Shown here in pieces: positions 5,376 to 46,069 of a stretch of DNA of 50,756 bases. The notes beneath the pieces were generated by a model that saw only the letters and a program-made list of their open reading frames with translations, searched no databases and had not been told where the DNA came from. This DNA is from Candidatus Eiseniibacteriota bacterium (GTDB lineage Bacteria > Eisenbacteria > RBG-16-71-46 > CAIMUX01 > WJJG01): NCBI GenBank assembly GCA_014729815.1, contig WJJG01000105.1:1-50756 (forward strand). The letters run 5' to 3'. Positions within the stretch are counted from its first letter, which is position 1, and each line of letters begins with the position of its first letter. The position numbers and the translations under genes were made by a program.

Positions 5376-5530
5376 GGTTGTGGAACGAAGATTGGATCTC
5401 GCGCCGCCCTCCATCCTCGACCCGGTATTGTGATCGGCGGCGCCTGCCGCGTCCATCCCTGCATCTTCCCGCAGGATGCCTAGCGCCATGGGCCTGCCCG
5501 GGGACCCGCTCCAATCTTCGTTCCACAACC
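5376..5530. repeat. 155-bp element bounded by perfect 21-bp inverted repeats
   Basis: GGTTGTGGAACGAAGATTGGA (5376-5396) is the exact reverse complement of TCCAATCTTCGTTCCACAACC (5510-5530). Confidence 0.85.
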
Positions 5531-5615
5531 GTTGGGATGAACATTCCGGCAGGGGTAAGCGTCCTACTCGATGGAGGCTATGCAGTTCTGTCCCTGCTGA
5601 GTACGGGAGGCGAGC

Positions 5616-6194
5616 ATGTCCGTGCGCCGCGAGAGTCCGGGATCGCGCATGCCGATGCGCACCGGAGCGCGCCCGCGCCATGGCCGGTGTGTCCAGCCGT
5701 TTCGGCACTGGGCTCCGGGGCGTCGGCCTTGCTCGAACAGCCCCGCGTATCGCTGGCTGACGGGGGCGCTCCTGTACTCCCTCCTGTCCTGGGTCGTCCT
5801 TTTCCCCGTGTTCGCGTCCGCCTGCACTGTCGATGATGAGTCGCCAGCTCCCCCTCGACGCGGGGGACGCGACGCGGGGAAAGCTGTCTGTTCGGCTGTC
5901 CCGGCCGCCGAGGCGGCGACACCGGCGGCCGGTGCCGAAGAGATGGCGGCCATCTATGAATCCGCGGAGTCAGACGCCGGCGGGCTGCTCACCGACCCCC
6001 ACATAACCCGCACCCGGTCCGAGCGGTCCGCCGGGTCGGCTCCGGACTGGATCTGGAATGCACCCGAGCGTCTCCTGCGTCGCATCCCGGCGGCGCTGCG
6101 CGCCACGGTGCGCGCACAGGGCAGACTACTGCGTGCGATCGGAGAGACGGTGGAGATTCTCCTGCGCGCCGCGGTGGTGGGGATCCAGTCGTAG
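5616..6194 (+). CDS. Hypothetical membrane-anchored protein
   Basis: GGAGG RBS before ATG; hydrophobic segment WLTGALLYSLLSWVVLFPVFASA; overlaps the 3' end of the convergent gene by 69 bp. Confidence 0.45.
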   Translation: MSVRRESPGSRMPMRTGARPRHGRCVQPFRHWAPGRRPCSNSPAYRWLTGALLYSLLSWVVLFPVFASACTVDDESPAPPRRGGRDAGKAVCSAVPAAEAATPAAGAEEMAAIYESAESDAGGLLTDPHITRTRSERSAGSAPDWIWNAPERLLRRIPAALRATVRAQGRLLRAIGETVEILLRAAVVGIQS

Positions 6195-8033
6195 CACTTC
6201 GCGCCACTGCGCGGCCGCTTCCTCGTATCGTCCCAGGTTGGCCAGCGCCATGCCGAGATGATTCCGGTAGTCGGGTTGGCGAGGATTCAGCTCGACCGCC
6301 CGCTCCAAGGCCGGCACCGCCTGCGCATCGTTCCCGGCACGATGATAGGCTACGCCCAGGGCATAGTAGGTGATCGCCGAGCGTGGCATCCGTTCCAGCG
6401 CTTCCTGATAGGCGCGGATGGCTGCGGCATACTGATGCACCTGATAGTGGATGGTTCCCAGTCCGTGCCAGGCCTCGCCGAAGTCCGGCGAGAGTTCGGT
6501 CGCCCGGCGGTACCAGCGTAGCCCCTCGGCGAGATTCCCCTGCTGCATCTGTCGCAGACCGACCGTATAGGCATCGAAGGCGCGGGCGGCAGCCGCCGGG
6601 TAGCTGGGCGGCAGCAGATGCATCACCAGGATCGCGAGCGCCGCCGCTCCCGGCAGTAGCCAGCGCCGGGCGCGAATCTCCCGCACCGCAAAGGCGAGTC
6701 CGGCGCCCGCCAGTCCGATCATCGCCGGGTAGGCGACGATCCGGTAGCGGCCGGCCGCGAAGAAGAGGATCACCTGCAGCCAGACGATCCCGATCAGCGC
6801 CAAGTAGGGCGTCAGGCGGCTGCGTGACGCGGACGCGCGGCGACGCCAGAGCAGGACCGCCGCTAGACCCAACCCTAGGAGGGGCACGAGCCAGGCGGCG
6901 CGGACGAATGCCAGCCGCAAGGGCAGGGTGGTGGCCGAGAGCGCATCGTAGTTGTAGATCTGCGGGATCTCACGCGGGGCGAAGAAGAGCAGCGCCTTGC
7001 GCGCGAAGAGCCGTAGAGCCTGGAGTGGCTCGGTGCGGATGAAGTCGAGGCCGCGCCGCAGCCAGTGCCGGGAGGACTCGGCGAGGGTCAGCTCACGGCC
7101 GGCCTGGATCGAGGCCGCGCGGCGGGCCGTCAGGTCATCGTTCAGATCGATCTGGGGCGGATTGCTGAAGATGCCGCGGGCGTAAGGGTTGTTGCCGATG
7201 TAGAAGTTCAGCCCGCCGTTGAGCGTCAGCAGTTGCAGGTGCCCGGTGGTTCGCGTCTGATGCATGGCCTGCGGCAGAAGAGGCAGCAGCGCCCCCAGGA
7301 GGATCAGGGCCGGCGCCACCCAGCGCCGCCCGCCGCCGTGCGACGGCCGCCGCCCGCCCGCGGACCTCCATGCGATGACGATCCAGACCACCGCCGCGAT
7401 GGGAAGGAGCAGGAAGCTCGCCCGCCCGAGTGCCATCAGACCGGCGGCGAGTCCGAATCCCGCGGCGGGCAGCGGATGCCGCGCAGAGCCGAATCGCGGA
7501 TCGGTCCACGTCCAGAGCATGACGGTGGAGAGGAACAGCAGCAGCGACTCCATCAACACCACGTTCTCGATCGCCAGGATCGGTCCGGCGAGCACGAAGA
7601 GGGCCGCGGCGAGATGGCCGGCCAGCGAGCCGAAGCTGCGGCGCGTAGCCACGAAGAGCAGGCAGAGGCTGGCGAGTCCCAGCGCGGCCTGAGCGATCTG
7701 CACGGTGAGCGGCTGCGCGGGGGCGACGCGAAAGAGCCCCGAGAGGAGCGCGGGGTAGAGGGCGCCGAAGAAGAGCGGCGCATGGGGCCATCCTTGGCCC
7801 TCGCTCAGGCGGAGCGCCAGGTCGAAGTAGTGCCGCGAGTCGAGAACCGGATCGGTGATGTGCGGATCGCGGGCCAGCGCAGCCACGGTCCAGATGCGCA
7901 GGGCGGCGCCGGCGCCCAACCAGGGGAGCAAGGCGCCCAACGTGCCACCGCCGGTCGCGCCGCGCCCGGACTCCCGCGCGACGGCTGCACCGGCCCGGCC
8001 GCCCCGTCTGCCGGATGGATCCGATCGGCGCAT
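6126..8033 (-). CDS. ArnT/PMT-like glycosyltransferase with C-terminal TPR repeats
   Basis: DSRHY, GGLNFYIGNNP and GRYR motifs in the TM region; TPRs (AWHGLG..Y, TYYALGVAY, YRNHLGMAL); start at ATG 8033 (ORF open from 8090). Confidence 0.82.
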   Translation of the reverse strand: MRRSDPSGRRGGRAGAAVARESGRGATGGGTLGALLPWLGAGAALRIWTVAALARDPHITDPVLDSRHYFDLALRLSEGQGWPHAPLFFGALYPALLSGLFRVAPAQPLTVQIAQAALGLASLCLLFVATRRSFGSLAGHLAAALFVLAGPILAIENVVLMESLLLFLSTVMLWTWTDPRFGSARHPLPAAGFGLAAGLMALGRASFLLLPIAAVVWIVIAWRSAGGRRPSHGGGRRWVAPALILLGALLPLLPQAMHQTRTTGHLQLLTLNGGLNFYIGNNPYARGIFSNPPQIDLNDDLTARRAASIQAGRELTLAESSRHWLRRGLDFIRTEPLQALRLFARKALLFFAPREIPQIYNYDALSATTLPLRLAFVRAAWLVPLLGLGLAAVLLWRRRASASRSRLTPYLALIGIVWLQVILFFAAGRYRIVAYPAMIGLAGAGLAFAVREIRARRWLLPGAAALAILVMHLLPPSYPAAAARAFDAYTVGLRQMQQGNLAEGLRWYRRATELSPDFGEAWHGLGTIHYQVHQYAAAIRAYQEALERMPRSAITYYALGVAYHRAGNDAQAVPALERAVELNPRQPDYRNHLGMALANLGRYEEAAAQWREVLRLDPHHRGAQENLHRLSDRTQ

Positions 8034-8148
8034 GCCGAAGGAGTAGCCGAAGCGGGGGGCGGAGTCGAGTGCTGATGGCCGGCGGTCCACGGCCGGCCCC
8101 CCCGCACCGGCTCCATCGGGACCGTCCCCGCAGCAGGCGCGAGGTCTA

Positions 8149-9006
8149 TCAGAAGATGAACGAGATGCCGACCTTGTAGGTCTCGAGCATCAGTGCCGGC
8201 TCGGTGTCGAAGGGCCAGTTCATCTCTTCCGTGCGCAGCTCGTACCAGGCGTAGGCCAGAGCGTTCTTGAGAACGAAGTGGACGAGCGGCGCGGCCTTGG
8301 GCGAACGATCGTGGATCTCCTCGATGAATGCGTCGAGCGCCTCCTGAGCCGTGTGTTCCAGACCGGCACTGAGCAGCCACTTCCAGAACAGCCAGCGGCG
8401 AAAGACCGCCGTGCGCTCGTATCCGGCGCTCAGCTCGACCATCGGTCCGAAGCGCAGGCGCAAACCGCCTTCCATCTTCGAGCCGAAGCGGAACTCGTCC
8501 CGATAGAGATCGATCAGCGCCTGATCGGTCCTGCGATCCAGCGGCGCGTCGACCGTCAGCTGCGTGGCGTTGAGGCCCCAGCCGTAGTAGGGCGTGATCG
8601 CCGAGCCGCGGATGCGGTAGCCATATCCCGATGCGCCATCGAACCCGATGCGCCAGAATTCGCCGTCGATCGTGCCGGCCTCGGCCTGCTCGCTCAGTTC
8701 GGTCGAGAGACGCGCGAACGAGAGCGCCCCGTAGGTGTAGTCGGTGATGCCATTCTCGTTGAGCTCATAGTCCGAATAGCCGAGCGCCAGCTCGGCCTGT
8801 CCCAGCTCGGCAAAGTCGGTCTCCAGTCCATCCAGCGTGACATCGCAGAGACCGTAGCCGAGGCGGATGGTGGGCGCCTCGGCCAGCTCGGCGATGTCGA
8901 GCTCTTCCATCACGCGGATCTTGGCGCTGGCCGTCGTCAGCAGGCCGAAAAGCATGCAGAAGAGCAGCCCCGCAAGGACATGGGGTGTGCGATGGGGGCG
9001 AAGCAT
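8149..9006 (-). CDS. Putative outer-membrane beta-barrel protein
   Basis: AGGAGG RBS; signal peptide ending ASA; alternating beta-strand pattern; C-terminal YKVGISFIF with terminal Phe. Confidence 0.65.
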   Translation of the reverse strand: MLRPHRTPHVLAGLLFCMLFGLLTTASAKIRVMEELDIAELAEAPTIRLGYGLCDVTLDGLETDFAELGQAELALGYSDYELNENGITDYTYGALSFARLSTELSEQAEAGTIDGEFWRIGFDGASGYGYRIRGSAITPYYGWGLNATQLTVDAPLDRRTDQALIDLYRDEFRFGSKMEGGLRLRFGPMVELSAGYERTAVFRRWLFWKWLLSAGLEHTAQEALDAFIEEIHDRSPKAAPLVHFVLKNALAYAWYELRTEEMNWPFDTEPALMLETYKVGISFIF

Positions 9007-37773: not shown

Positions 37774-37840
37774 GGCGGGCTGGCGCGGCATCTACCGAGT
37801 GGCGGCCTTGCGCGGCGTCTACCGGGCGGCGGCCTTGCGC
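37774..37840. repeat. Degenerate 27-bp tandem repeat spanning a stop codon
   Basis: GGCGGGCTGGCGCGGCATCTACCGAGT / GGCGGCCTTGCGCGGCGTCTACCGGGC / GGCGGCCTTGCGC. Confidence 0.7.
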
Positions 37841-38475
37841 TGCTTCTTCTCGGCGGCTGCAACCTTGCGGCGGGCCTTGGCCGTGGCCTCGGCGGTGTCC
37901 TTCTCGGTGGCCATGCGGAAGTCGAGCTCCGGAAAAGAGCCGGCGATCACATCTGCGGCCTTGTGGATCGCAGAGATCCCGCGGCCGGAGAACTCGTTGC
38001 GCTGCATCTGTGAGAAGAGCAGCAGCTCGAAGGCCAGCGACTTCATCCAGTCGACGTCCACGCGGTATCCGCAGACGCCCAGCGCCCCGGTCTTGCGCAC
38101 GAAGCGCTGTAGCTTGCGCTTCTCGATTCCCAGCGTGCTGCACGAGGAGAACATCAGCACTCGGTCCTCGCACTTTCCCTCGAGCAGGCGCGCCATGCGG
38201 CTCAGCTTGTAGACCTTGCCCTGGATCTCGACTCCGCTCTCCATGCCGTGGCTGGCCAGGTACAGGATCGGGAAGGCGGCGTACCGCCTCTGAGTCCAGC
38301 GCTCGAGATAGAACTCCAGCTCCTCGCGCGTGGCATACTCGCGATGGATGTACTCGATGCCTTCGTGCAGGCGCAGCAGCTCGAGGATCGGGCGCACCGT
38401 GGAGGTCACGCGCAGATCCGGATCCCAGAGTCCTTCGATGCAGAAGATCCCCTTCTTCTGCTTCCGTTTGCGCAC
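37819..38475 (-). CDS. DUF6642-like protein with caspase/CHAT-like His-Cys motifs and Lys/Ala/Arg-rich tail
   Basis: IFCIEGLW, LYLASHG, FSSCSTL and GY..DVDW motifs; GGAGG RBS. Confidence 0.65.
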   Translation of the reverse strand: MRKRKQKKGIFCIEGLWDPDLRVTSTVRPILELLRLHEGIEYIHREYATREELEFYLERWTQRRYAAFPILYLASHGMESGVEIQGKVYKLSRMARLLEGKCEDRVLMFSSCSTLGIEKRKLQRFVRKTGALGVCGYRVDVDWMKSLAFELLLFSQMQRNEFSGRGISAIHKAADVIAGSFPELDFRMATEKDTAEATAKARRKVAAAEKKQRKAAAR

Positions 38476-38556: not shown

Positions 38557-40023
38557 CTATCGAATCCGGATCATCCTGCGGGTCTGCATGAAGTCGCCGG
38601 CCGTCAGGCGGTAGTAGTAGATGCCCGCCGGCACCGCCGCCCCGCGGCCATCGCGCCCGTCCCATTGCAGCGCATGCAGCCCGGCGCGGCGGCGGGCCCG
38701 CACCAGGGTGCGGATCGCGCGTCCCTGGGCATCGTAGAGCTGCAGGCGTACATCGGCGTCTCGGGCGAGTCGGTAGCTGAGCTCGGTATGCGAGCGGAAC
38801 GGGTTGGGGTAGTTGCCTTCCAGGATGCTGAAGCGCGGCGGATGCCGGTCCGGGGCGCCAGACCCCGTGAGGATCTGCTCGAGCACGGTCAGGAACGACT
38901 GCATCTCCTCGAGCGTGCCGGTGGAGACGCGCAGATGGTTCTGCATGCCCCATCCAGTGCGCACGTAGATCCCTTCGTCGGCCAGCGCCGCCGAGACGGG
39001 CCCGGCCGGCTGGCCCACGTCGACCATGAAGAAGTTCGTCTCTGAGGGGATGTAGTCGAGGCCCAGTGCATCGAATCCGTCGAAGCAGAGCTGTTTGGCC
39101 TGATCGTTGAGCGCCACGGTGTCGCTGATGTGCTGCGCGTCGGTCAGCGCCGCCCGGCCGCCCTCGAGGGCCAGACGCGAGACGGTGCCCCAGTTGTGCC
39201 ACATCGTCATCGAGCCGATCAGGCTCTGCTTGCCCACCGCGTAGCCGAGTCGCACGCCGGCCATCCCGAAGATCTTCGAGAAAGTACGGATGACCACGAC
39301 GTTCTTGCCCTGGCGCACGAGCTCCATGGCCGACTCGTAGGCCGGGTCGTGGATGTACTCGTGATAGGCCTCGTCGATGATCACGGTGACATGCTCGGGC
39401 AGCGCATCGACGAACGCGGCGATGTCGACCGCCGGCAGAACGGTGGCCGTGGGGTTGTTGGGGTTGGTGAGGCAGACCGCGGTCGTGTGCGCGTCGACCT
39501 GCGAAGCCATGTCGGCCAGATCGATGCGCCAGTCCTGATCGAGACCCGAGTGACGCACTTCGGCGCCCATGAAGGCGCAATCGGAGCCGAACTGCCCGTA
39601 GGAAGGAGTCGGTACGACGACGTTGCCCTCCGGGTCGGCAAAGGCGAAGGCCGCCAGGCGCAAGATCTCGGTGGCCCCGCAGCCGGCGATCGTCTGAGGA
39701 CGCTCGACCTGATGCAGGTCGGCGAGGTCTTCGCGCAGCGATTCGGCGTACCAGTCGCCGTAGCGATGGCCCATCGGCACGGCATCGACCATGGCGGCCT
39801 GCGCGAGGGGCGAGGGGCCCAGGGGATTCTCGTTGTAGCAGAGCCGGCCCACGTAGTCGTCGCGCACCGGCAGGTCGGCCGGCGCCGTCGCGCCGATGCG
39901 CGGCCCGCGCAGCAGGGCCAGGGCGGCCATGCCGGCGGTGGCGCCGAAGAAGGAGCGACGCGAGAGGCCCGAGGACCCCAAGCGATGGTCTCTGAGTGAA
40001 TTGCGAGTTCTGCGGAGTGCCAT
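38557..40023 (-). CDS. Tat-signal HisC-like class I/II PLP aminotransferase fused to FlgD-Ig/T9SS-like C-terminal domain
   Basis: SRRSFFG twin-arginine motif; NENPLG, NPNNPT, DEAY and RTFSKIFGMAGVRLGY; NYPNPF...WDGRD...AGIYYYRL tail. Confidence 0.85.
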   Translation of the reverse strand: MALRRTRNSLRDHRLGSSGLSRRSFFGATAGMAALALLRGPRIGATAPADLPVRDDYVGRLCYNENPLGPSPLAQAAMVDAVPMGHRYGDWYAESLREDLADLHQVERPQTIAGCGATEILRLAAFAFADPEGNVVVPTPSYGQFGSDCAFMGAEVRHSGLDQDWRIDLADMASQVDAHTTAVCLTNPNNPTATVLPAVDIAAFVDALPEHVTVIIDEAYHEYIHDPAYESAMELVRQGKNVVVIRTFSKIFGMAGVRLGYAVGKQSLIGSMTMWHNWGTVSRLALEGGRAALTDAQHISDTVALNDQAKQLCFDGFDALGLDYIPSETNFFMVDVGQPAGPVSAALADEGIYVRTGWGMQNHLRVSTGTLEEMQSFLTVLEQILTGSGAPDRHPPRFSILEGNYPNPFRSHTELSYRLARDADVRLQLYDAQGRAIRTLVRARRRAGLHALQWDGRDGRGAAVPAGIYYYRLTAGDFMQTRRMIRIR

Positions 40024-40247
40024 GGCGCACCTCGAGGGTGATCGGGATCCAGGTCGACGAACCACCCACAATGATACGTCATCTGCGGCGGCAGCGAAAC
40101 GTTCCCCTGCGCCGCCCGCGCGGCGGAGCCCCTCGCCTCATGGTGGGTGGTTCGTCGGGAGCCCGCGGGGCTCTCGATCACCGCATCCCCACCGGCAGTC
40201 CTCCGCACCCCCCGCCCGGGAGCGTGTGGGAGAGCCGGTGCGGCGGC

Positions 40248-41228
40248 TTAGCGTTCGCCGTCCGGCTCGACCTTGATGACGACCAGGGTGGCTTCGTCGG
40301 TCATCGGTTCGCCCTGCAGGAAGCCGCGCATCTCCTCCACGATGCCGCGCGCGATCGTTGCTGCGTCCTCCTCGCGCAGGCGCTGGAGGACTGCACGCAC
40401 CCGCGCGCGTCCGAACATCTCCTCGGCGGCTCCCATCGCCTCGGTGATGCCGTCGGAGTAGAGCGCCAGGACGTCACCGGGTTCGATCGGCACGCGCACG
40501 TCGTCGTAGGTCAGCTCGCGCGTCACACAGAGCAGAAGCTGGGTCTGGCTGAGATGGATGTATTCGCCATTGGCGCGGATCACGATCGGGGTCTCATGAC
40601 CGGCCGAGGCGTAGGTCAGCGTTCGGGCGATCGGATCGACGACGCAGTAGAGCGCGGTGACGAAGCGGCGGTGAGACTGACAGGCATCGATCAGACCCTG
40701 ATTGAGCGCCGATAGGACCTCCTCGGGACGATCGAGGTCGACCGGGCCGCGCCGGCTGGCCCACGACTCGCGCATCTCGGTGAAGCTCCGCTTGGCCAGC
40801 GCCTTGAGCCTCGTCGACTCCAGGCCGTGCCCCATGATGTCGTAGAGAAAAAGCCCCAGGGCCCGTCCGTCGCGCGGGCGCGTCAAGGGCACCGTGTCGA
40901 GGAAGTCGCCTCCGATCATCTCCATCGGCAGCGAGACGGCCGCCAGATCCAGCCCACGGGTCGATTGCAGGCGACGCAGGTCGAAGTCCTCGGGCACATG
41001 ATAGCTGACGTGCTCGGCGGCGATCGCCTCCTCTGCGGAACCGCGTAGCAGGAGCCGTTCGAGCTTGCGCAACTCCTCGAGCAGAATCGCGCGATGCTTG
41101 CGCTCCTCTTCGGCGAGCTGCAGAAGCAGAGCCTCGGACTCCGGCACGTGTGCCCGCGCCCGCGCCTTCTGATAGTAGTTGAAGGCGTCGGTCTCACGTT
41201 GGATCGCCTCGCGCAGGATTTGGCGCAT
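40248..41228 (-). CDS. Rubrerythrin/ferritin-like domain fused to SpoIIE/PP2C-family phosphatase
   Basis: N-terminal AIQRE...YY...LAEEERKH; then GGDFLD, DIMGHG, SAGH, LYSDGITEA and DEATLVV. Confidence 0.85.
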   Translation of the reverse strand: MRQILREAIQRETDAFNYYQKARARAHVPESEALLLQLAEEERKHRAILLEELRKLERLLLRGSAEEAIAAEHVSYHVPEDFDLRRLQSTRGLDLAAVSLPMEMIGGDFLDTVPLTRPRDGRALGLFLYDIMGHGLESTRLKALAKRSFTEMRESWASRRGPVDLDRPEEVLSALNQGLIDACQSHRRFVTALYCVVDPIARTLTYASAGHETPIVIRANGEYIHLSQTQLLLCVTRELTYDDVRVPIEPGDVLALYSDGITEAMGAAEEMFGRARVRAVLQRLREEDAATIARGIVEEMRGFLQGEPMTDEATLVVIKVEPDGER

Positions 41229-41378
41229 CGCCTCTCGGCGACGGGTGTGTGGCGCTGGTTCTCCCATGGGCGGCTCCCTTCAGCGGTCGACGAAGCGGCC
41301 ACGCGATCGCGCACTGCATCGTTGCAGAGACGATCCTACCCGAGGGCAGGATGGCGGTTCCGCGAGACGGGGCGCGTG

Positions 41379-41906
41379 TCACAGGAAGCGTTCGAAGCGC
41401 TCCTGCTTGGCCTTGCAGATCGGGCAACGCTCGGGCGGCCCGTCGCGCCCGCAGAGGTATCCACACACGCGACAGCGCCAAACGGGGGTCGGGAGCTTGG
41501 CCGATCCTGCGGCGGCAGCCGCTCCGGGTTCCGTCCGCGGCGCACGCGCCTGCGCGCGGTGCTCCTCGTCCGGACGCCGCTCGGGAATCGGCGCAACCTC
41601 CTTCTCTCCGCCCAGGACGCGCTCCGAAACGTAGAGCCCGCAGTAGCAGGCGTCGTACTCGTTCAGGTCGGCGTCGCGATAGTCGCAAGGACAGATGATA
41701 TCCAGATCCTCCTGCTTGCTTCCCGCGGCCAAACGACACGGACAGGCCCAGTACCCGTAGCGTCGCTCGTTGACCAGGAGTCCCTCGACCAGGTCACGGG
41801 TGAACTCCCGGTCCGGATTGAGATGGTAGCCGCCCTCCTCGGCCTCCCGAGCGAGACGCTCGTGGAGTCGCTCGATCTCCTCGGACGGGATCTCGGGTGC
41901 GCTCAT
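41379..41906 (-). CDS. Ferredoxin:thioredoxin reductase catalytic-subunit-like protein with C-terminal rubredoxin-like domain (FDR-like)
   Basis: [16 protein letters not shown] and CYCGLY motifs; WRCRVCGY...CPICKA. Confidence 0.9.
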
Positions 41907-42184
41907 GACTCCAACTCCTCGCGAATGCGCCGCTCGTCGTAGCCGCGGATGCAGATCTTCTCGTCGATGACCAGCGTGGGATAGGAAGCGCGCGGATTCC
42001 AGCGGCGCAGCTCCGCGACGGCCCGCGCCTTCTCCTCCCCTTCGAGGAGGTCGACATCGATGAACTCGTGGGCCACCCCCAACGCCTTGAGCAGTCGCTT
42101 GGTCTTCCTGCACCAAACGCAAGTGCTGATGGCGAACATGAAGACTTTGCCGCGATTCGTCCCAGGGACGTGCGTGGACTTCAT
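41903..42184 (-). CDS. Glutaredoxin/NrdH-like redoxin
   Basis: STCVWC active site, SYPT cis-Pro motif, IRGY; 4-bp overlaps with both neighbours. Confidence 0.88.
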
Positions 42185-42771
42185 CGAGAGGCTCCGTTGT
42201 TCCGCTCCGTCGTGGGGGCGGGATAGCGATTCTCGTACGCGAACTCCGCGAGCGCGCGGCGCGCGGGCCGTTGCCGCTCGCTGGTCCGCTGCTTCTCGTT
42301 GAGCTCCGAATCGATCTCCGCCGCGCGCGCGCCGATAACGACCAGTGTGATGACCCGCATATCCTCGGGGATTTCCAGGACCGCCTTGACCCGCGACTCG
42401 CGGAAGCCGGCGATTGGATGGGCGACCAGGCCGCGTTCGGTGGCGCGCAGGATCAGCAAGGCGGTGGCCATGCCGGTATCGAAGAGATAGTAGACGCGCT
42501 TCTTGACCACGCAGTCGAGATCGCGCCGGCTGGCGACGGCCACGATCAGCGAGGCCTTGCGCGCCCAGGCGTTTCCCGAGGAGAGCGCTTCATGGAGCCG
42601 GCGAAGCTGCCGCGGCTCGTAGGTGAAGACGAATCTCCAGGGCTGATGGTTGAAACAGGAAGCGGATAGGCCAGCGTGGGTCGCAAGATCCTCGACCAGC
42701 GCTTGATCGATCTCCAGCGGGGCCAGCGAGCGATAGGCGCGTCGCTCGCGGATGGCCTGGGATACATCCAT
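42181..42771 (-). CDS. Nitroreductase family protein
   Basis: [27 protein letters not shown] and [10 protein letters not shown] motifs. Confidence 0.88.
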
Positions 42772-42900
42772 GCGGGCCTCCTTGCACTCGAATCGGCGAG
42801 TGTGCCGGAGGTCCGGCGGCTACGCAAGGCCCCTCGCGATGCTCCCGAACCGCGCGAGGTCTTTGGCCTCCACAAAGTCCGGCGCGTTGCTTCCGTCCCG

Positions 42901-43938
42901 TCACGCACCCAGCTTCTGCAGATTGACATGTTCCTGCACCATTGTGGTGAGTCGCGCGATCTTGTCCGACTCCTCCTTGGTCAGCAGATGCTCGATGTCG
43001 TCGATGCGTTTGGCGACCTGATAGGTGTCCTCGGCCACCAGCAGCATCGGCACGCCCCGCTCGGCGACCTGCGAGATGATGTTGGCCGGTGGCATGACGT
43101 TGTTGGTCAGCACGATGCCCACCGTGTCGCCCTCCAGCGCGGCCAGGATCATGTCGCTGCGATCCCCGCTGGTGATGACCAGGCGCTGCTCCTCGGCGAA
43201 GCGTGGTTCCCGGCGTGCGGCGTCGGCGTCCATGGCGCCGACGAAGATGTGCTTGACCGTGCGGTCGAGCTGCCCCTCGCCGGAGAGGATCTTGGCGAAG
43301 AGCACGCCGGCCAGGAAGCCGACCGAAGGGTGCGTCAGCTCGGCATCGAAGGGAATCACGCCCAGCAGGGGAATGCCCAGCTCGTCGATGTGACGGCGGT
43401 AGGTGTTCTCGAAGTCGTCGGGATCCTTGACCTGATTGGCGATCGCTCCGATCAGAGGCACTCCGCGCAGGTCGATATGGTGCTTGAAGAACTGCAGATC
43501 GTCGAGGATCTCGTCCTCGGGCCCACTGGCCACCAGGAGCAGCTGCGCCTCGGCATGCTGCGCCACTGTGAGTGCATCCAGGTGCACCGAGCCGCCGAAG
43601 CCGAGATCCTTCCCGGCCTCGATGAAGACCAGCTGCTTGCCCTCTTCGATCTGCGCCAGCAGCTGGCCCAGCTTGGCGCGGGTCGACGCCTGGTCGTACA
43701 TGAATCGCAGCTTCGAATGATCGAAGCCGATACTCATCTCCTCCGGCTCGGAGTCGAGCCCCAGGATGTTGACCACCAGCGCCGAGTCGTAGTCCCACAG
43801 GCGCTTCTTGCGGTAGAGCAGCCGATCGCCGAACGGCTTCATGTATCCCACCGGCTTCTGCAGCGTGCGCGCCATCCCGATGATGGCGCTCGTCTTGCCG
43901 GCGCCCTCACGCGTCGAGGCAACGACCAGTCTAGGCAT
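42901..43938 (-). CDS. BioD-like P-loop + DRTGG domain protein (phosphotransacetylase N-terminal-like)
   Basis: STREGAGKTS, VGYMKPFG, VFIEAG, VGAM and ITSGDRSD motifs; no PTA catalytic domain. Confidence 0.85.
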   Translation of the reverse strand: MPRLVVASTREGAGKTSAIIGMARTLQKPVGYMKPFGDRLLYRKKRLWDYDSALVVNILGLDSEPEEMSIGFDHSKLRFMYDQASTRAKLGQLLAQIEEGKQLVFIEAGKDLGFGGSVHLDALTVAQHAEAQLLLVASGPEDEILDDLQFFKHHIDLRGVPLIGAIANQVKDPDDFENTYRRHIDELGIPLLGVIPFDAELTHPSVGFLAGVLFAKILSGEGQLDRTVKHIFVGAMDADAARREPRFAEEQRLVITSGDRSDMILAALEGDTVGIVLTNNVMPPANIISQVAERGVPMLLVAEDTYQVAKRIDDIEHLLTKEESDKIARLTTMVQEHVNLQKLGA

Positions 43939-46069
43939 CTGTACTCCCTCCGGCAGTCTCGGTGAGCAATACCCGCACATCGACCGCCTTGGCTCCGTGG
44001 CCCTGTTCGTAGGCCACCAGCGGGTTGACTTCGATATCGGAGATCTCCGGGCAGTGCCGGATGATCGTGGCGAGGCGGATGATCGCATCGGTGACGCTCT
44101 CGATGTCGCGGCGCTCCTCGCCACGCACACCGAGCAGCAGGGGATAGGCGCGGATCTCCTTCATCATCGCCAGCACTTCGCGCCGATCGAGCGGCGCCGC
44201 GCGGAAGGAGACATCCTTGAGCACCTCGACGTAGATCCCGCCCATGCCGAACATGACGATCGGCCCGAAGCTGGCATCGCGCCGCGCGCCGGCGATCAGC
44301 TCGACGCCCGAGGCGACCATCTCGGCGACCTCGATCCCCTGGATCCGCGCCTGCGGCATGCGCGTGCGGCAGTTGCGCATGATCGCCTGGTAGGCGTCGA
44401 TGACCTCCTCGCGGTCTTCCAGATCGAGCGCCACGCCGCCCACATCGCTCTTGTGCAGGATGTCGCGCGAGACGACCTTCAGCACCAGCGGGTAGCCGAT
44501 CTGCTCGGCGGCCTGTACGGCCTCGTCCAGATTGCGCACCACGCGACTGCGGGGCAGCGGGATGCCGATGGCGTCCATCAGCGCCTGCCCTTCATGCGCC
44601 AGCAGAAAGCTCCGCTTCTCCGACCGCGCACCGCGTACGATCCGGTCGATGGCGGCGGTGTCGATCTCGGTCTCGTCCGTCGCATCGCGGCGCTGCTGCA
44701 GGTAGCGCCCGTAGCTGTAGAGCCCGCCCATGCAGGCCACGGTCTCGTAGACGTCCCCGAAGACCGGCACGCGCTCCTTGGTGAGCGTATCGAGGCTCGT
44801 CTCGGTGTCGGCGCCGCCAAAGATCGAGAAGAGCAGCGGCTTGCCGCGCTCCTTGTACCGCGCGTAGTTGCGGCGGATCATCTTCATCAGGGACTCGGCG
44901 TCGAAGAGCGCCGTCTCGCAATAGAGCGCCAGGACAGAGTGGATCTTCTCGCTCGTGAGCGCCGCGTCGAGGGCTACGCGGTAGTGTTCGGCGCTGGCTT
45001 GGCCGGTCAGATCGATCGGATTCTTGGTCGAGCCGAAGTCGGGTGTGACCGGACTGAAGATCTCCTTGAGGGTCTGGGCATCATCATAGAGCGGCACGTC
45101 GTATTTCTCGCAGGCATCCGTGGCCAGCACGCCGATGCCGCCGCCGTTGGTGACGATGACGGCATGGCGGCCCGCGGGCGGAGGCGTCTCCGAGAGGAAC
45201 TTGCAGAGGTTGAAGGCTTCCTCCACGCTCTCGGCGCGCAGTACGCCCGCCTGGCGCATGACCGCCTCGAAAATCGCGTCCGACCCGGCCAGCGAGCCGG
45301 TGTGCGAGGCGGCCGCTACCGCGCCGCGCTTCGAGCGCCCCGACTTGATCGCCACGACCGGCTTCCGGCCGGTCGTCTCGCGCAGGACCTCGAGCAGCTC
45401 CTCGCCCTCGCGCACCCCTTCGATGTACATCAGGATCGTGCGCGTGTTGGCATCCTCCATCAGATAGCGCAGCAGGTCGGCCTCGTCGATGTCGGCCTTG
45501 TTGCCCACCGAGATCATGGCCGAGATGCCGACGTTCTCGACGGCCGTCTTGCCGATCATCGCCAGACCCAGGGCGCCGCTCTGCGTGATGATCGCCACGC
45601 TGCCGTGGCGGATCCCACCGGGCCCGAAGGTCGCATCCAGCGAAGCGGAGGCCGAGAACATGCCGAAGATGTTGGGCCCCAGGATGCGCATGCCGCGCTC
45701 GGTGGCGTAGCCGACGAGCTGGCGTTCCTCTTCGAGGTTGCCGACCTCGGAGAAGCCCGAGGTGATCACCAGATTGTACTTCGTGCCCCGATCAGCCAGA
45801 TCCTGCACCGCACCCAGTGCGTACTTGGCGGGCACGCAGGTGACCGCCAGGTCGATCTCGGTCGGGACGTCCGCGGCCCTGGCGTAGACCGGGCGGCCGA
45901 GGATCTCGCCCCCCTTGGGATTGACCGGGTAGATCTTGCCCCCGTAGCCGCCCTCGATGATGTTCTCGAGGATCGTGTGCCCGATCTTGCCCGGCGTGTG
46001 CGAGGCGCCGATCACCGCGACCGAGCGCGGCTCGAAGAGACGGCGAATGTGCGGTCCGTTACCCGGCAT
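43931..46069 (-). CDS. Acetate/acyl-CoA ligase (ADP-forming), fused alpha-beta
   Basis: PRSVAVIGAS, LGPNIFG, SVGNKAD, ASHTGSLAG (phospho-His), NPIDLTG, HKSDVGGV and FGPIVMFGMGG motifs. Confidence 0.92.
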   Translation of the reverse strand: MPGNGPHIRRLFEPRSVAVIGASHTPGKIGHTILENIIEGGYGGKIYPVNPKGGEILGRPVYARAADVPTEIDLAVTCVPAKYALGAVQDLADRGTKYNLVITSGFSEVGNLEEERQLVGYATERGMRILGPNIFGMFSASASLDATFGPGGIRHGSVAIITQSGALGLAMIGKTAVENVGISAMISVGNKADIDEADLLRYLMEDANTRTILMYIEGVREGEELLEVLRETTGRKPVVAIKSGRSKRGAVAAASHTGSLAGSDAIFEAVMRQAGVLRAESVEEAFNLCKFLSETPPPAGRHAVIVTNGGGIGVLATDACEKYDVPLYDDAQTLKEIFSPVTPDFGSTKNPIDLTGQASAEHYRVALDAALTSEKIHSVLALYCETALFDAESLMKMIRRNYARYKERGKPLLFSIFGGADTETSLDTLTKERVPVFGDVYETVACMGGLYSYGRYLQQRRDATDETEIDTAAIDRIVRGARSEKRSFLLAHEGQALMDAIGIPLPRSRVVRNLDEAVQAAEQIGYPLVLKVVSRDILHKSDVGGVALDLEDREEVIDAYQAIMRNCRTRMPQARIQGIEVAEMVASGVELIAGARRDASFGPIVMFGMGGIYVEVLKDVSFRAAPLDRREVLAMMKEIRAYPLLLGVRGEERRDIESVTDAIIRLATIIRHCPEISDIEVNPLVAYEQGHGAKAVDVRVLLTETAGGSTDA

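Follow-up and report, generated by a model that had tools for sequence, protein, structure and literature searches.

Four adjacent genes in a 50,756-nucleotide stretch of DNA from a Candidatus Eiseniibacteriota bacterium (GenBank assembly GCA_014729815.1, contig WJJG01000105.1, positions 1 to 50,756; hereafter the window) raise the question of whether a disulfide-reducing module is wired to a Ser/Thr phosphatase. Read from 42771 down to 40248, all on the minus strand, they encode a nitroreductase-family flavoprotein of 196 amino acids (42181..42771; Pfam Nitroreductase, 3.8e-15), a glutaredoxin (Grx)-like redoxin of 93 amino acids with a CVWC active site (41903..42184; Pfam Glutaredoxin, 6e-12), a ferredoxin:disulfide reductase (FDR) of 175 amino acids composed of an FTRc domain and a C-terminal rubredoxin (41379..41906; FeThRed_B 2.5e-22, RUBY_RBDX 4.9e-14) and a SpoIIE/RsbU-type PP2C phosphatase of 339 amino acids preceded by a putative half-ferritin domain (40248..41267; SpoIIE 1.5e-42, Rubrerythrin 2e-07). 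An earlier note on this DNA had placed the four genes on one strand and the first three in 4-bp overlaps. Both observations hold, the nitroreductase and Grx genes and the Grx and FDR genes each sharing the sequence ATGA. It had also proposed that the four form one undescribed system. We consider it probable instead that two separate units lie side by side, namely a known nitroreductase–Grx–FDR operon and a separately inherited phosphatase with a half-ferritin sensor. The interest of the locus would then lie in the phosphatase family, PPM phosphatases with what appears to be a novel sensor domain.

The distribution of the two parts across genomes carries this reading. FDR loci were taken as the best 80 of at least 526 stretches encoding an FDR relative (genome_contigs), and in none of the 80 was a phosphatase-like gene present within about 6 kb. 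Conversely, no FTRc or Grx gene was found within about 8 kb of the phosphatase family in 48 other distinct loci, a count made without the two closest relatives of the phosphatase (70–71% identical); three matches to the FDR query in phosphatase loci covered its rubredoxin part only. Among 27 genomes with the phosphatase family, 14 also carried an FDR-like gene, always elsewhere, and in one complete chromosome the two genes lay about 52 kb apart. A full-length orthologue of the phosphatase was found in none of 40 relatives in the lineage of the window, and its N-terminal domain occurred in a single genome of the 206 in the phylum, the window's own. Grx–FDR was present in three of the 40 relatives, where it came without the nitroreductase, the phosphatase or the flanking genes of the window. 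The window FDR was 63–68% identical to those of its own relatives and up to 68% identical to those of other phyla, and is thus no closer to its kin. Upstream, a gene pair encoding an ADP-forming acetyl-CoA synthetase-like protein and a DRTGG-domain protein (ACS–DRTGG) was retained by 11 of the 12 relatives from the same family; the spot downstream of it is variable among relatives, and the four window genes were absent there from all 10 relatives' regions examined. With linkage seen in none of the 80 FDR loci and none of the 48 phosphatase loci, and the adjacency in a single genome among 206, we conclude that the four-gene arrangement is specific to the genome of the window and that a four-gene relay is unsupported. 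The neighbourhood conservation that a joint system had been expected to display was therefore missing, the phosphatase being unlinked elsewhere. A joint arrival of the four genes as one island was also considered; the spot varies among relatives, but the data show neither joint nor separate arrival.

What, then, is the phosphatase? Its AlphaFold2 (AF2) model (predicted local distance difference test score, pLDDT, 93.6; predicted template modelling score, pTM, 0.90) consisted of two helices (residues 6–37 and 42–74) followed directly by a PP2C fold. The catalytic domain (residues about 105–333, 40269..40955), delimited by Pfam, alignment and Foldseek, matched SiaA, RssB and Rv1364c-RsbU at a Foldseek probability of 1.00, and SpoIIE was matched as well; the structures concerned were 6k4e (1.2e-13), 3f79, 3ke6 and 5ucg. 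No solved chain among the Foldseek matches listed covered the N-terminal domain. Residues D121, D143, G146, H147, D272, G273 and D324 of the PP2C part were invariant in 46 family sequences, and they fall within what we take to be the metal-binding motifs GGD, DxxGHG, SDG and a C-terminal D. The protein thus shares with the RsbU/SpoIIE/SiaA/RssB-type PPM phosphatases the PP2C fold, the metal-binding positions and an N-terminal helical domain that is predicted to dimerise. It differs from them in that this domain is half a ferritin and not an RsbU-N, PAS, GAF or receiver domain.

The N-terminal helix-loop-helix (residues 6–74, 41046..41252) was recognised from the family alignment, the AF2 model and profile matches. 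Its residues E25, E54, E55, H58 and E65 were invariant in the 46 family sequences, which are 33–71% identical, as well as across 26 diverse representatives. A profile of the domain matched 2fzf, a COG1633 protein, in each of its two halves (1.6e-07); further matches were 1mft, a two-helix peptide described as a 'four-helix bundle model' (2.2e-4), and the encapsulated ferritins 5n5e, 2e0z and EncB. Because E25 and E55-x-x-H58 align with the Glu and ExxH positions of 2fzf, 1mft and the encapsulated ferritins, the domain is assigned as one half of a putative ferritin-type di-iron site. The description of the phosphatase as ferritin-like therefore stands as regards relationship and has to be narrowed as regards extent: the Pfam Rubrerythrin match was restricted to residues 17–71 (31.9 bits), and where ferritin-like superfamily proteins have four helices and two E...ExxH sets per chain, two helices and one set were found here. 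This also separates the domain from the COG1633/rubrerythrin-family proteins of 145–180 amino acids (2fzf, 2oh3, 1vjx), its nearest sequence relatives, which are often encoded beside the phosphatase. In comparison with the NCBIfam models of encapsulated ferritins, the scores stayed far below the cut-offs (EncB_fam 23.5 bits against 90, ferrit_encaps 22.8 against 125), and none of the four proteins of the locus exceeded any NCBIfam family cut-off.

Since one chain holds only one set of ligands, the prediction of the homodimer is of particular interest. It scored 0.68, the best of three controls 0.00. Among proteins of solved structure, 20 of 30 one-chain pairs attain the mark in question, against one of 23 single chains; unlike the calibration, which is thus only rough, the run worked from a custom alignment and carried two Fe ions along. 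Contacts agreed between runs to at least 84%, with a partner pLDDT of at least 78, and the confident interface was confined to residues 10–69, with contacts 28–28, 54–54 and 54–58. Contacts 28–28 and 54–54 on the dyad point to an antiparallel arrangement, and the dimer is accordingly predicted as an antiparallel four-helix bundle like that of the encapsulated ferritins. The encapsulated ferritins (EncFtn, EncB/EncC; 5n5e, 5da5, 7s5k) and the de novo two-helix di-iron peptide 1mft carry the Glu on helix 1 and the ExxH on helix 2 with the same spacing as the phosphatase domain. In contrast to those ferritins, the domain shares its chain with an enzyme. By the family scores above, and with no search made for encapsulin genes or cargo peptides, it does not count as encapsulin cargo, nor is it likely to act as a ferroxidase.

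An alignment of the N-terminal domain, searched against metagenome and genome collections, retrieved at least 66 loci, so that the census is a lower bound; in 59 of the 66 the match continued into a PP2C domain. Merging of near-identical copies left 49 distinct groups including the window, that is, the 48 others referred to above. A locus search with the phosphatase as a single sequence yielded one full-length relative only, and it took the alignment to bring the family into view. Against 1.84 billion representatives, the profile found 1670 proteins at E ≤0.001, and the phosphatase family amounted to about 20 clusters at 50% identity. Nineteen of the best 150 matches were 324–358 amino acids long, and all 19 carried both SpoIIE and Rubrerythrin; the others were mostly two-stretch ferritin-like proteins of about 130–210 amino acids. 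None of the best 150 exceeded 358 amino acids, and six other proteins scanned among them bore no signalling output domain. In a literature search that covered few subscription journals, none of the papers listed described a ferritin-like or rubrerythrin-domain PP2C.

The neighbours of this family connect it with iron and oxidants. Of the 48 other loci, 27 have one or more genes linked to oxidative stress or iron within 6 kb (Fur/PerR, peroxiredoxin, rubrerythrin, ferritin, COG1633 ferritin-like or FprA, with clusters of neighbours identified by Pfam on one representative each); the same is true of 19 among the 33 loci whose flank reaches 4 kb or more. Fur/PerR-family regulators were counted in 11 of the 48 loci, peroxiredoxin in 10, rubrerythrin in nine, ferritin in eight and FprA-type flavodiiron proteins in six; COG1633 ferritin-like genes were found as well. 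A ferritin-like gene followed on the same strand within 150 bp downstream of the phosphatase in 12 loci, and in L167 and L170 a rubrerythrin gene ended 14–17 bp upstream of it. The suspected tie of the phosphatase to redox or iron status is thus sustained by conserved neighbours in other genomes, not by linkage to Grx–FDR.

Some further features of these loci and of the window's own genome were recorded. Four loci of Zixibacteria/Ignavibacteria type (L161, L165, L191, L194) have, about 280 bp upstream of the phosphatase gene and divergent from it, a gene for a protein of about 110 amino acids that begins with a rubredoxin-like CxxC...CxxC motif and ends in a helical tail. In a complete Zixibacteria chromosome from a metagenome-assembled genome (L183, CP070839.1, 8001–8372), the phosphatase match ended at residue 142, which could mean a disrupted or frameshifted gene. 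Another contig of the window's genome, C318, carries at 5400–8953 a cluster of Fur/PerR-like, rubrerythrin and FprA-type flavodiiron genes together with a further ferritin-like stretch; the phosphatase, which in L167 and L170 separates the rubrerythrin gene from the FprA gene, is missing from it. Upstream of its Fur-like gene, a promoter-like pair TTGACA...TATCTT is followed by the inverted repeat TGTTA-CTGA-TAACA, and the palindrome TTCCTAGGAA is found upstream of the Fur-like gene and of the rubrerythrin gene alike.

Taken together, the phosphatase is best read as an iron- or oxidant-sensing PP2C. Two half-ferritin copies would pair antiparallel, bringing E25, E55 and H58 of both chains together at the interface in a site for two iron (or other metal) ions, an arrangement that encapsulated ferritins also have. 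Should this site take up metal or be oxidised, the dimer could be altered, and the change might pass via helix 2 (residues 42–74), which runs straight into the PP2C domain, to the phosphatase activity, so that iron or oxidant status would be reported to a phosphoprotein substrate. Dimer-controlled activation of RsbU-type PPM phosphatases via exchangeable N-terminal domains is established, according to PMC12143880. The coupling from half-ferritin to PP2C would nevertheless be the weakest part of the proposal, the predicted antiparallel geometry being unlike the crossing-linker model. The position beside FDR would reflect the clustering of oxidative-stress genes or a chance insertion into the variable spot, not an electron relay.

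Several points weigh against the assumption of two units with a metal-sensing phosphatase. Solved EncFtn or de novo di-iron bundles memorised by the model may lie behind the dimer score, which indicates likeness and not binding. In the antiparallel bundle the two PP2C domains lie far apart, one at each end, and there was no confident contact between them; the dimerisation mechanism of RsbU with its crossing linkers is therefore not simply transferable. As many as 21 of the 48 loci had no oxidative-stress neighbour, and in a Zixibacteria/Ignavibacteria subgroup the phosphatase lies instead between pyrF, seen in 17 loci, and a gene of PTS-EIIA-like type, seen in 18, a neighbourhood that looks like lineage synteny. 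The two closest relatives of the phosphatase, which stood outside the context counts, might share the adjacency to FDR, and with no terminator found between FDR and phosphatase, the four genes may be co-transcribed here. Finally, the STAS or anti-sigma partners that the earlier note had suggested searching for did not emerge: the window holds no STAS, anti-sigma or kinase partner (no RsbT, STAS or RsbW gene stands near the phosphatase as a partner-switching system of the RsbU–RsbV–RsbW kind would have it), none is among the recurrent neighbours of the family, and the four STAS genes of the genome lie on other contigs (C8, C111, C66 and C247).

The boundary between the two units is the spacer between the FDR and phosphatase genes (41268..41378), which contains a hairpin and an AAGGGAG ribosome-binding site. 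Its length depends on the start codon. M1 (41267) is better supported than M14 (41228) because the AAGGGAG Shine-Dalgarno sequence precedes it and because residues 9–13, N-terminal to M14, align with orthologues; the spacer would then measure 111 bp, whereas the 150 bp given previously fit a start at M14. The TAGGAT that had been offered as a possible promoter of the phosphatase gene is present one nucleotide from its reported place (41338–41333, minus strand), where it constitutes the 3′ arm of the 8-bp hairpin AUCCUGCC-CUCG-GGUAGGAU (41352–41333). A promoter role did not find support, as the region 40100–43100 contained no sigma-70-like site (0.2 expected from shuffles). The fold of the spacer was no better than that of shuffled sequences (z -0.68). 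In the same region, a scan for terminators gave none in the spacer, and its sole terminator-like match, within shuffle expectation, lay inside the phosphatase gene.

These data bear on the other explanations of the locus. In a four-protein relay, electrons from the nitroreductase and FDR would reach the di-iron site of the phosphatase through the rubredoxin domain, and the redox state of thiols and ferredoxin would gate Ser/Thr dephosphorylation. We hold this to be very unlikely. The genes are indeed adjacent on one strand with no terminator detected, rubredoxin domains are natural reductants of rubrerythrin di-iron sites, and in other genomes the phosphatase often has a gene with a rubredoxin domain close by (rubrerythrin within 6 kb in nine loci, the divergent small rubredoxin-like protein in four); the absence of the phosphatase from the C318 cluster of its own genome points in the same direction. 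Yet FTRc or Grx and the phosphatase were linked in none of the 80 and none of the 48 loci, the 14 genomes that hold both genes keep them apart, the adjacency is seen in one of 206 genomes of the phylum, and, unlike the trio with its 4-bp overlaps, the phosphatase gene is set off by 111 bp and has a ribosome-binding site of its own. A looser version, in which the di-iron site would be kept reduced by whichever rubredoxin-type domain is adjacent (the FDR tail here, rubrerythrin or the small rubredoxin-like protein elsewhere) and ferredoxin/rubredoxin electron supply would be weighed against O2 or H2O2 into dephosphorylation, would make FDR one of several interchangeable donors and the phosphatase a redox sensor of a new kind. 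It appears highly improbable as well; if true, the four-gene relay would be right in spirit.

Co-regulation without electron transfer between the trio and the phosphatase is another, unlikely, explanation: the four genes would be co-transcribed or co-induced, for example under oxidative stress, and their products would act independently. A spacer without promoter-like or terminator-like sites and the recurrence of both modules in oxidative-stress neighbourhoods elsewhere speak for it, whereas the spacer hairpin could itself serve as a terminator or operator, and a comparison of two window spacers with the Fur, rubrerythrin and FprA upstream regions of C318 revealed no common operator, only 8–10-mers with no clear meaning. 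A third possibility concerns the phosphatase alone. Its N-terminal hairpin could be a metal-free helical module of ferritin-like descent for dimerisation or docking, with a partner protein, and not iron or oxidants, regulating the enzyme. RsbU-type phosphatases have metal-free helical N-terminal domains (PMC12143880), and the ferritin-family scores given above are low. However, the invariance of the putative ligands E25, E55 and H58 and of E54 and E65, down to 33% identity and across the diverse representatives, is hard to explain by a purely structural helix pair, and the genomic context of the family is related to iron and oxidants, which makes this quite unlikely.

Should the iron- or oxidant-sensing phosphatase prove correct, a metal site present only in the dimer would provide a simple, testable link from metal or oxidant status to phosphatase control, and the protein would be a natural counterpart of designed two-helix di-iron proteins. 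Iron and oxidant sensing in strict and facultative anaerobes beyond PerR/Fur-type repressors is a poorly known field, and the way in which bacterial PP2C phosphatases, with their many N-terminal domains, turn signals into activity is an active question. Since the family is small and its members are compact (about 330 amino acids) and predicted with high confidence, it is tractable experimentally.

We now turn to the first unit. The FDR aligned from end to end with that of Methanosarcina acetivorans (4tpu_A; E 2.5e-69) and has the same order of FTRc (residues 11–96, 41619..41876, where the Cys motifs are visible in the Pfam stretch) and rubredoxin-like domain (residues 143–172, 41391..41480; Pfam RUBY_RBDX). 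All six FTRc cysteines (CPC..CPC..CYC) align with 4tpu_A, which itself has CYC, and so do the rubredoxin CxxC pairs, CRVC and CPIC. The Grx-like protein matched 3nzn_A (2.6e-28) and 5cax_A (6.7e-28), the latter presumably a methanoredoxin, and the motif STCVWC was identical in both. A Methanosarcina locus (L033) displays the same gene pair as the window, with the CVWC redoxin directly upstream of FDR; the window differs in its bacterial host and in the nitroreductase gene coupled upstream. A Grx relative was encoded upstream of FDR on the same strand in 76 of the 80 loci, which span many bacterial and archaeal phyla including Methanosarcina, and two of the four loci lacking it had less than 150 bp of upstream sequence. 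A solved natural Grx–FTRc fusion (7pwe_A) matched both window proteins, Grx part then FTRc, in the order of the window genes, which supports the view that the two gene products work together. Unlike the fusion, the window has separate overlapping genes and an FDR with a rubredoxin tail; for 7pwe, no FDR match past residue 116 was reported.

Genes two and three can thus be assigned to the already known FDR/methanoredoxin-type pair, a disulfide-reducing module of anaerobes, and apart from the census of the pair this part of the locus holds nothing new. By analogy with the Methanosarcina enzymes, reduced ferredoxin would pass electrons to the [4Fe-4S]/disulfide centre of FDR, FDR to the CVWC disulfide of the Grx-like protein, and the latter to disulfides of target proteins. 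FDRs are described as Fe–S enzymes related to FTRc in PMC6262447, where FDR is also cited as reducing a non-canonical thioredoxin and as serving the class III ribonucleotide reductase of M. barkeri. Recurrent neighbours of the Grx–FDR pair, named from their sequences and not Pfam-checked, included two 2-oxoacid:ferredoxin oxidoreductase subunits (16 and 13 of the 80 loci), NifS (15), NifU (10), a copper ATPase (11), COG1633 ferritin-like proteins (10), peroxiredoxin (9) and superoxide-reductase-like proteins (8). The earlier note was right that FTR–rubredoxin and redoxin pairs occur in anaerobes, and its disulfide-reduction chain is right for Grx–FDR and plausible for the nitroreductase, while the wiring to the phosphatase is not borne out. 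Of the undescribed system it proposed, the Grx–FDR part has its counterparts in 4tpu_A and in nearly all FDR loci, and novelty is left to the half-ferritin PP2C.

The nitroreductase scored 56.9 bits against Pfam Nitroreductase (PF00881, cut-off 23.5). Its closest solved relative was the nitroreductase domain of a Bcp–nitroreductase fusion (4eo3_A, E 3.6e-41), presumably from Thermotoga maritima, which places it in the same subfamily and by association ties that subfamily to thiol-peroxidase systems; unlike the fusion, the window protein carries no peroxiredoxin domain. A nitroreductase relative stood near Grx–FDR in eight of the 80 loci by tblastn and in nine by clustering. Occurrence in eight of 80 loci, together with the relation to 4eo3_A, suggests that the nitroreductase is an occasional accessory flavoprotein of the Grx–FDR module, and the trio a minor variant of the known pair. 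The order nitroreductase, Grx, FDR recurred in five Thermoplasmatota metagenome-assembled genomes (L015, L042, L043, L053, L087), whose nitroreductases were 46–54% identical to that of the window; in L015 a short second segment gave a higher value. This minor observation, a trio common to the window and Thermoplasmatota, suggests that it moves between domains of life as a unit.

Downstream of the phosphatase, the window encodes a class I/II aminotransferase (38557–40071, minus strand; Pfam 6e-53) in an unusual combination with a C-terminal FlgD Ig-like domain (1.2e-11). By eye, its N-terminus resembles a twin-arginine signal sequence (RRSFF), and only its Ig-like tail recurs near ACS–DRTGG in relatives. 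A DUF6642-family protein (37819–38475, minus strand; Pfam 2.6e-27) follows downstream of the aminotransferase. On the other side of the four genes, the DRTGG/AAA_26 open reading frame as listed (42901–44130, minus strand) overlaps the ADP-forming acetyl-CoA synthetase-like gene (43931–46069, minus strand) by 200 bp. Because relatives align to it only from about residue 33–64, its true start is probably the internal MPRLVV....

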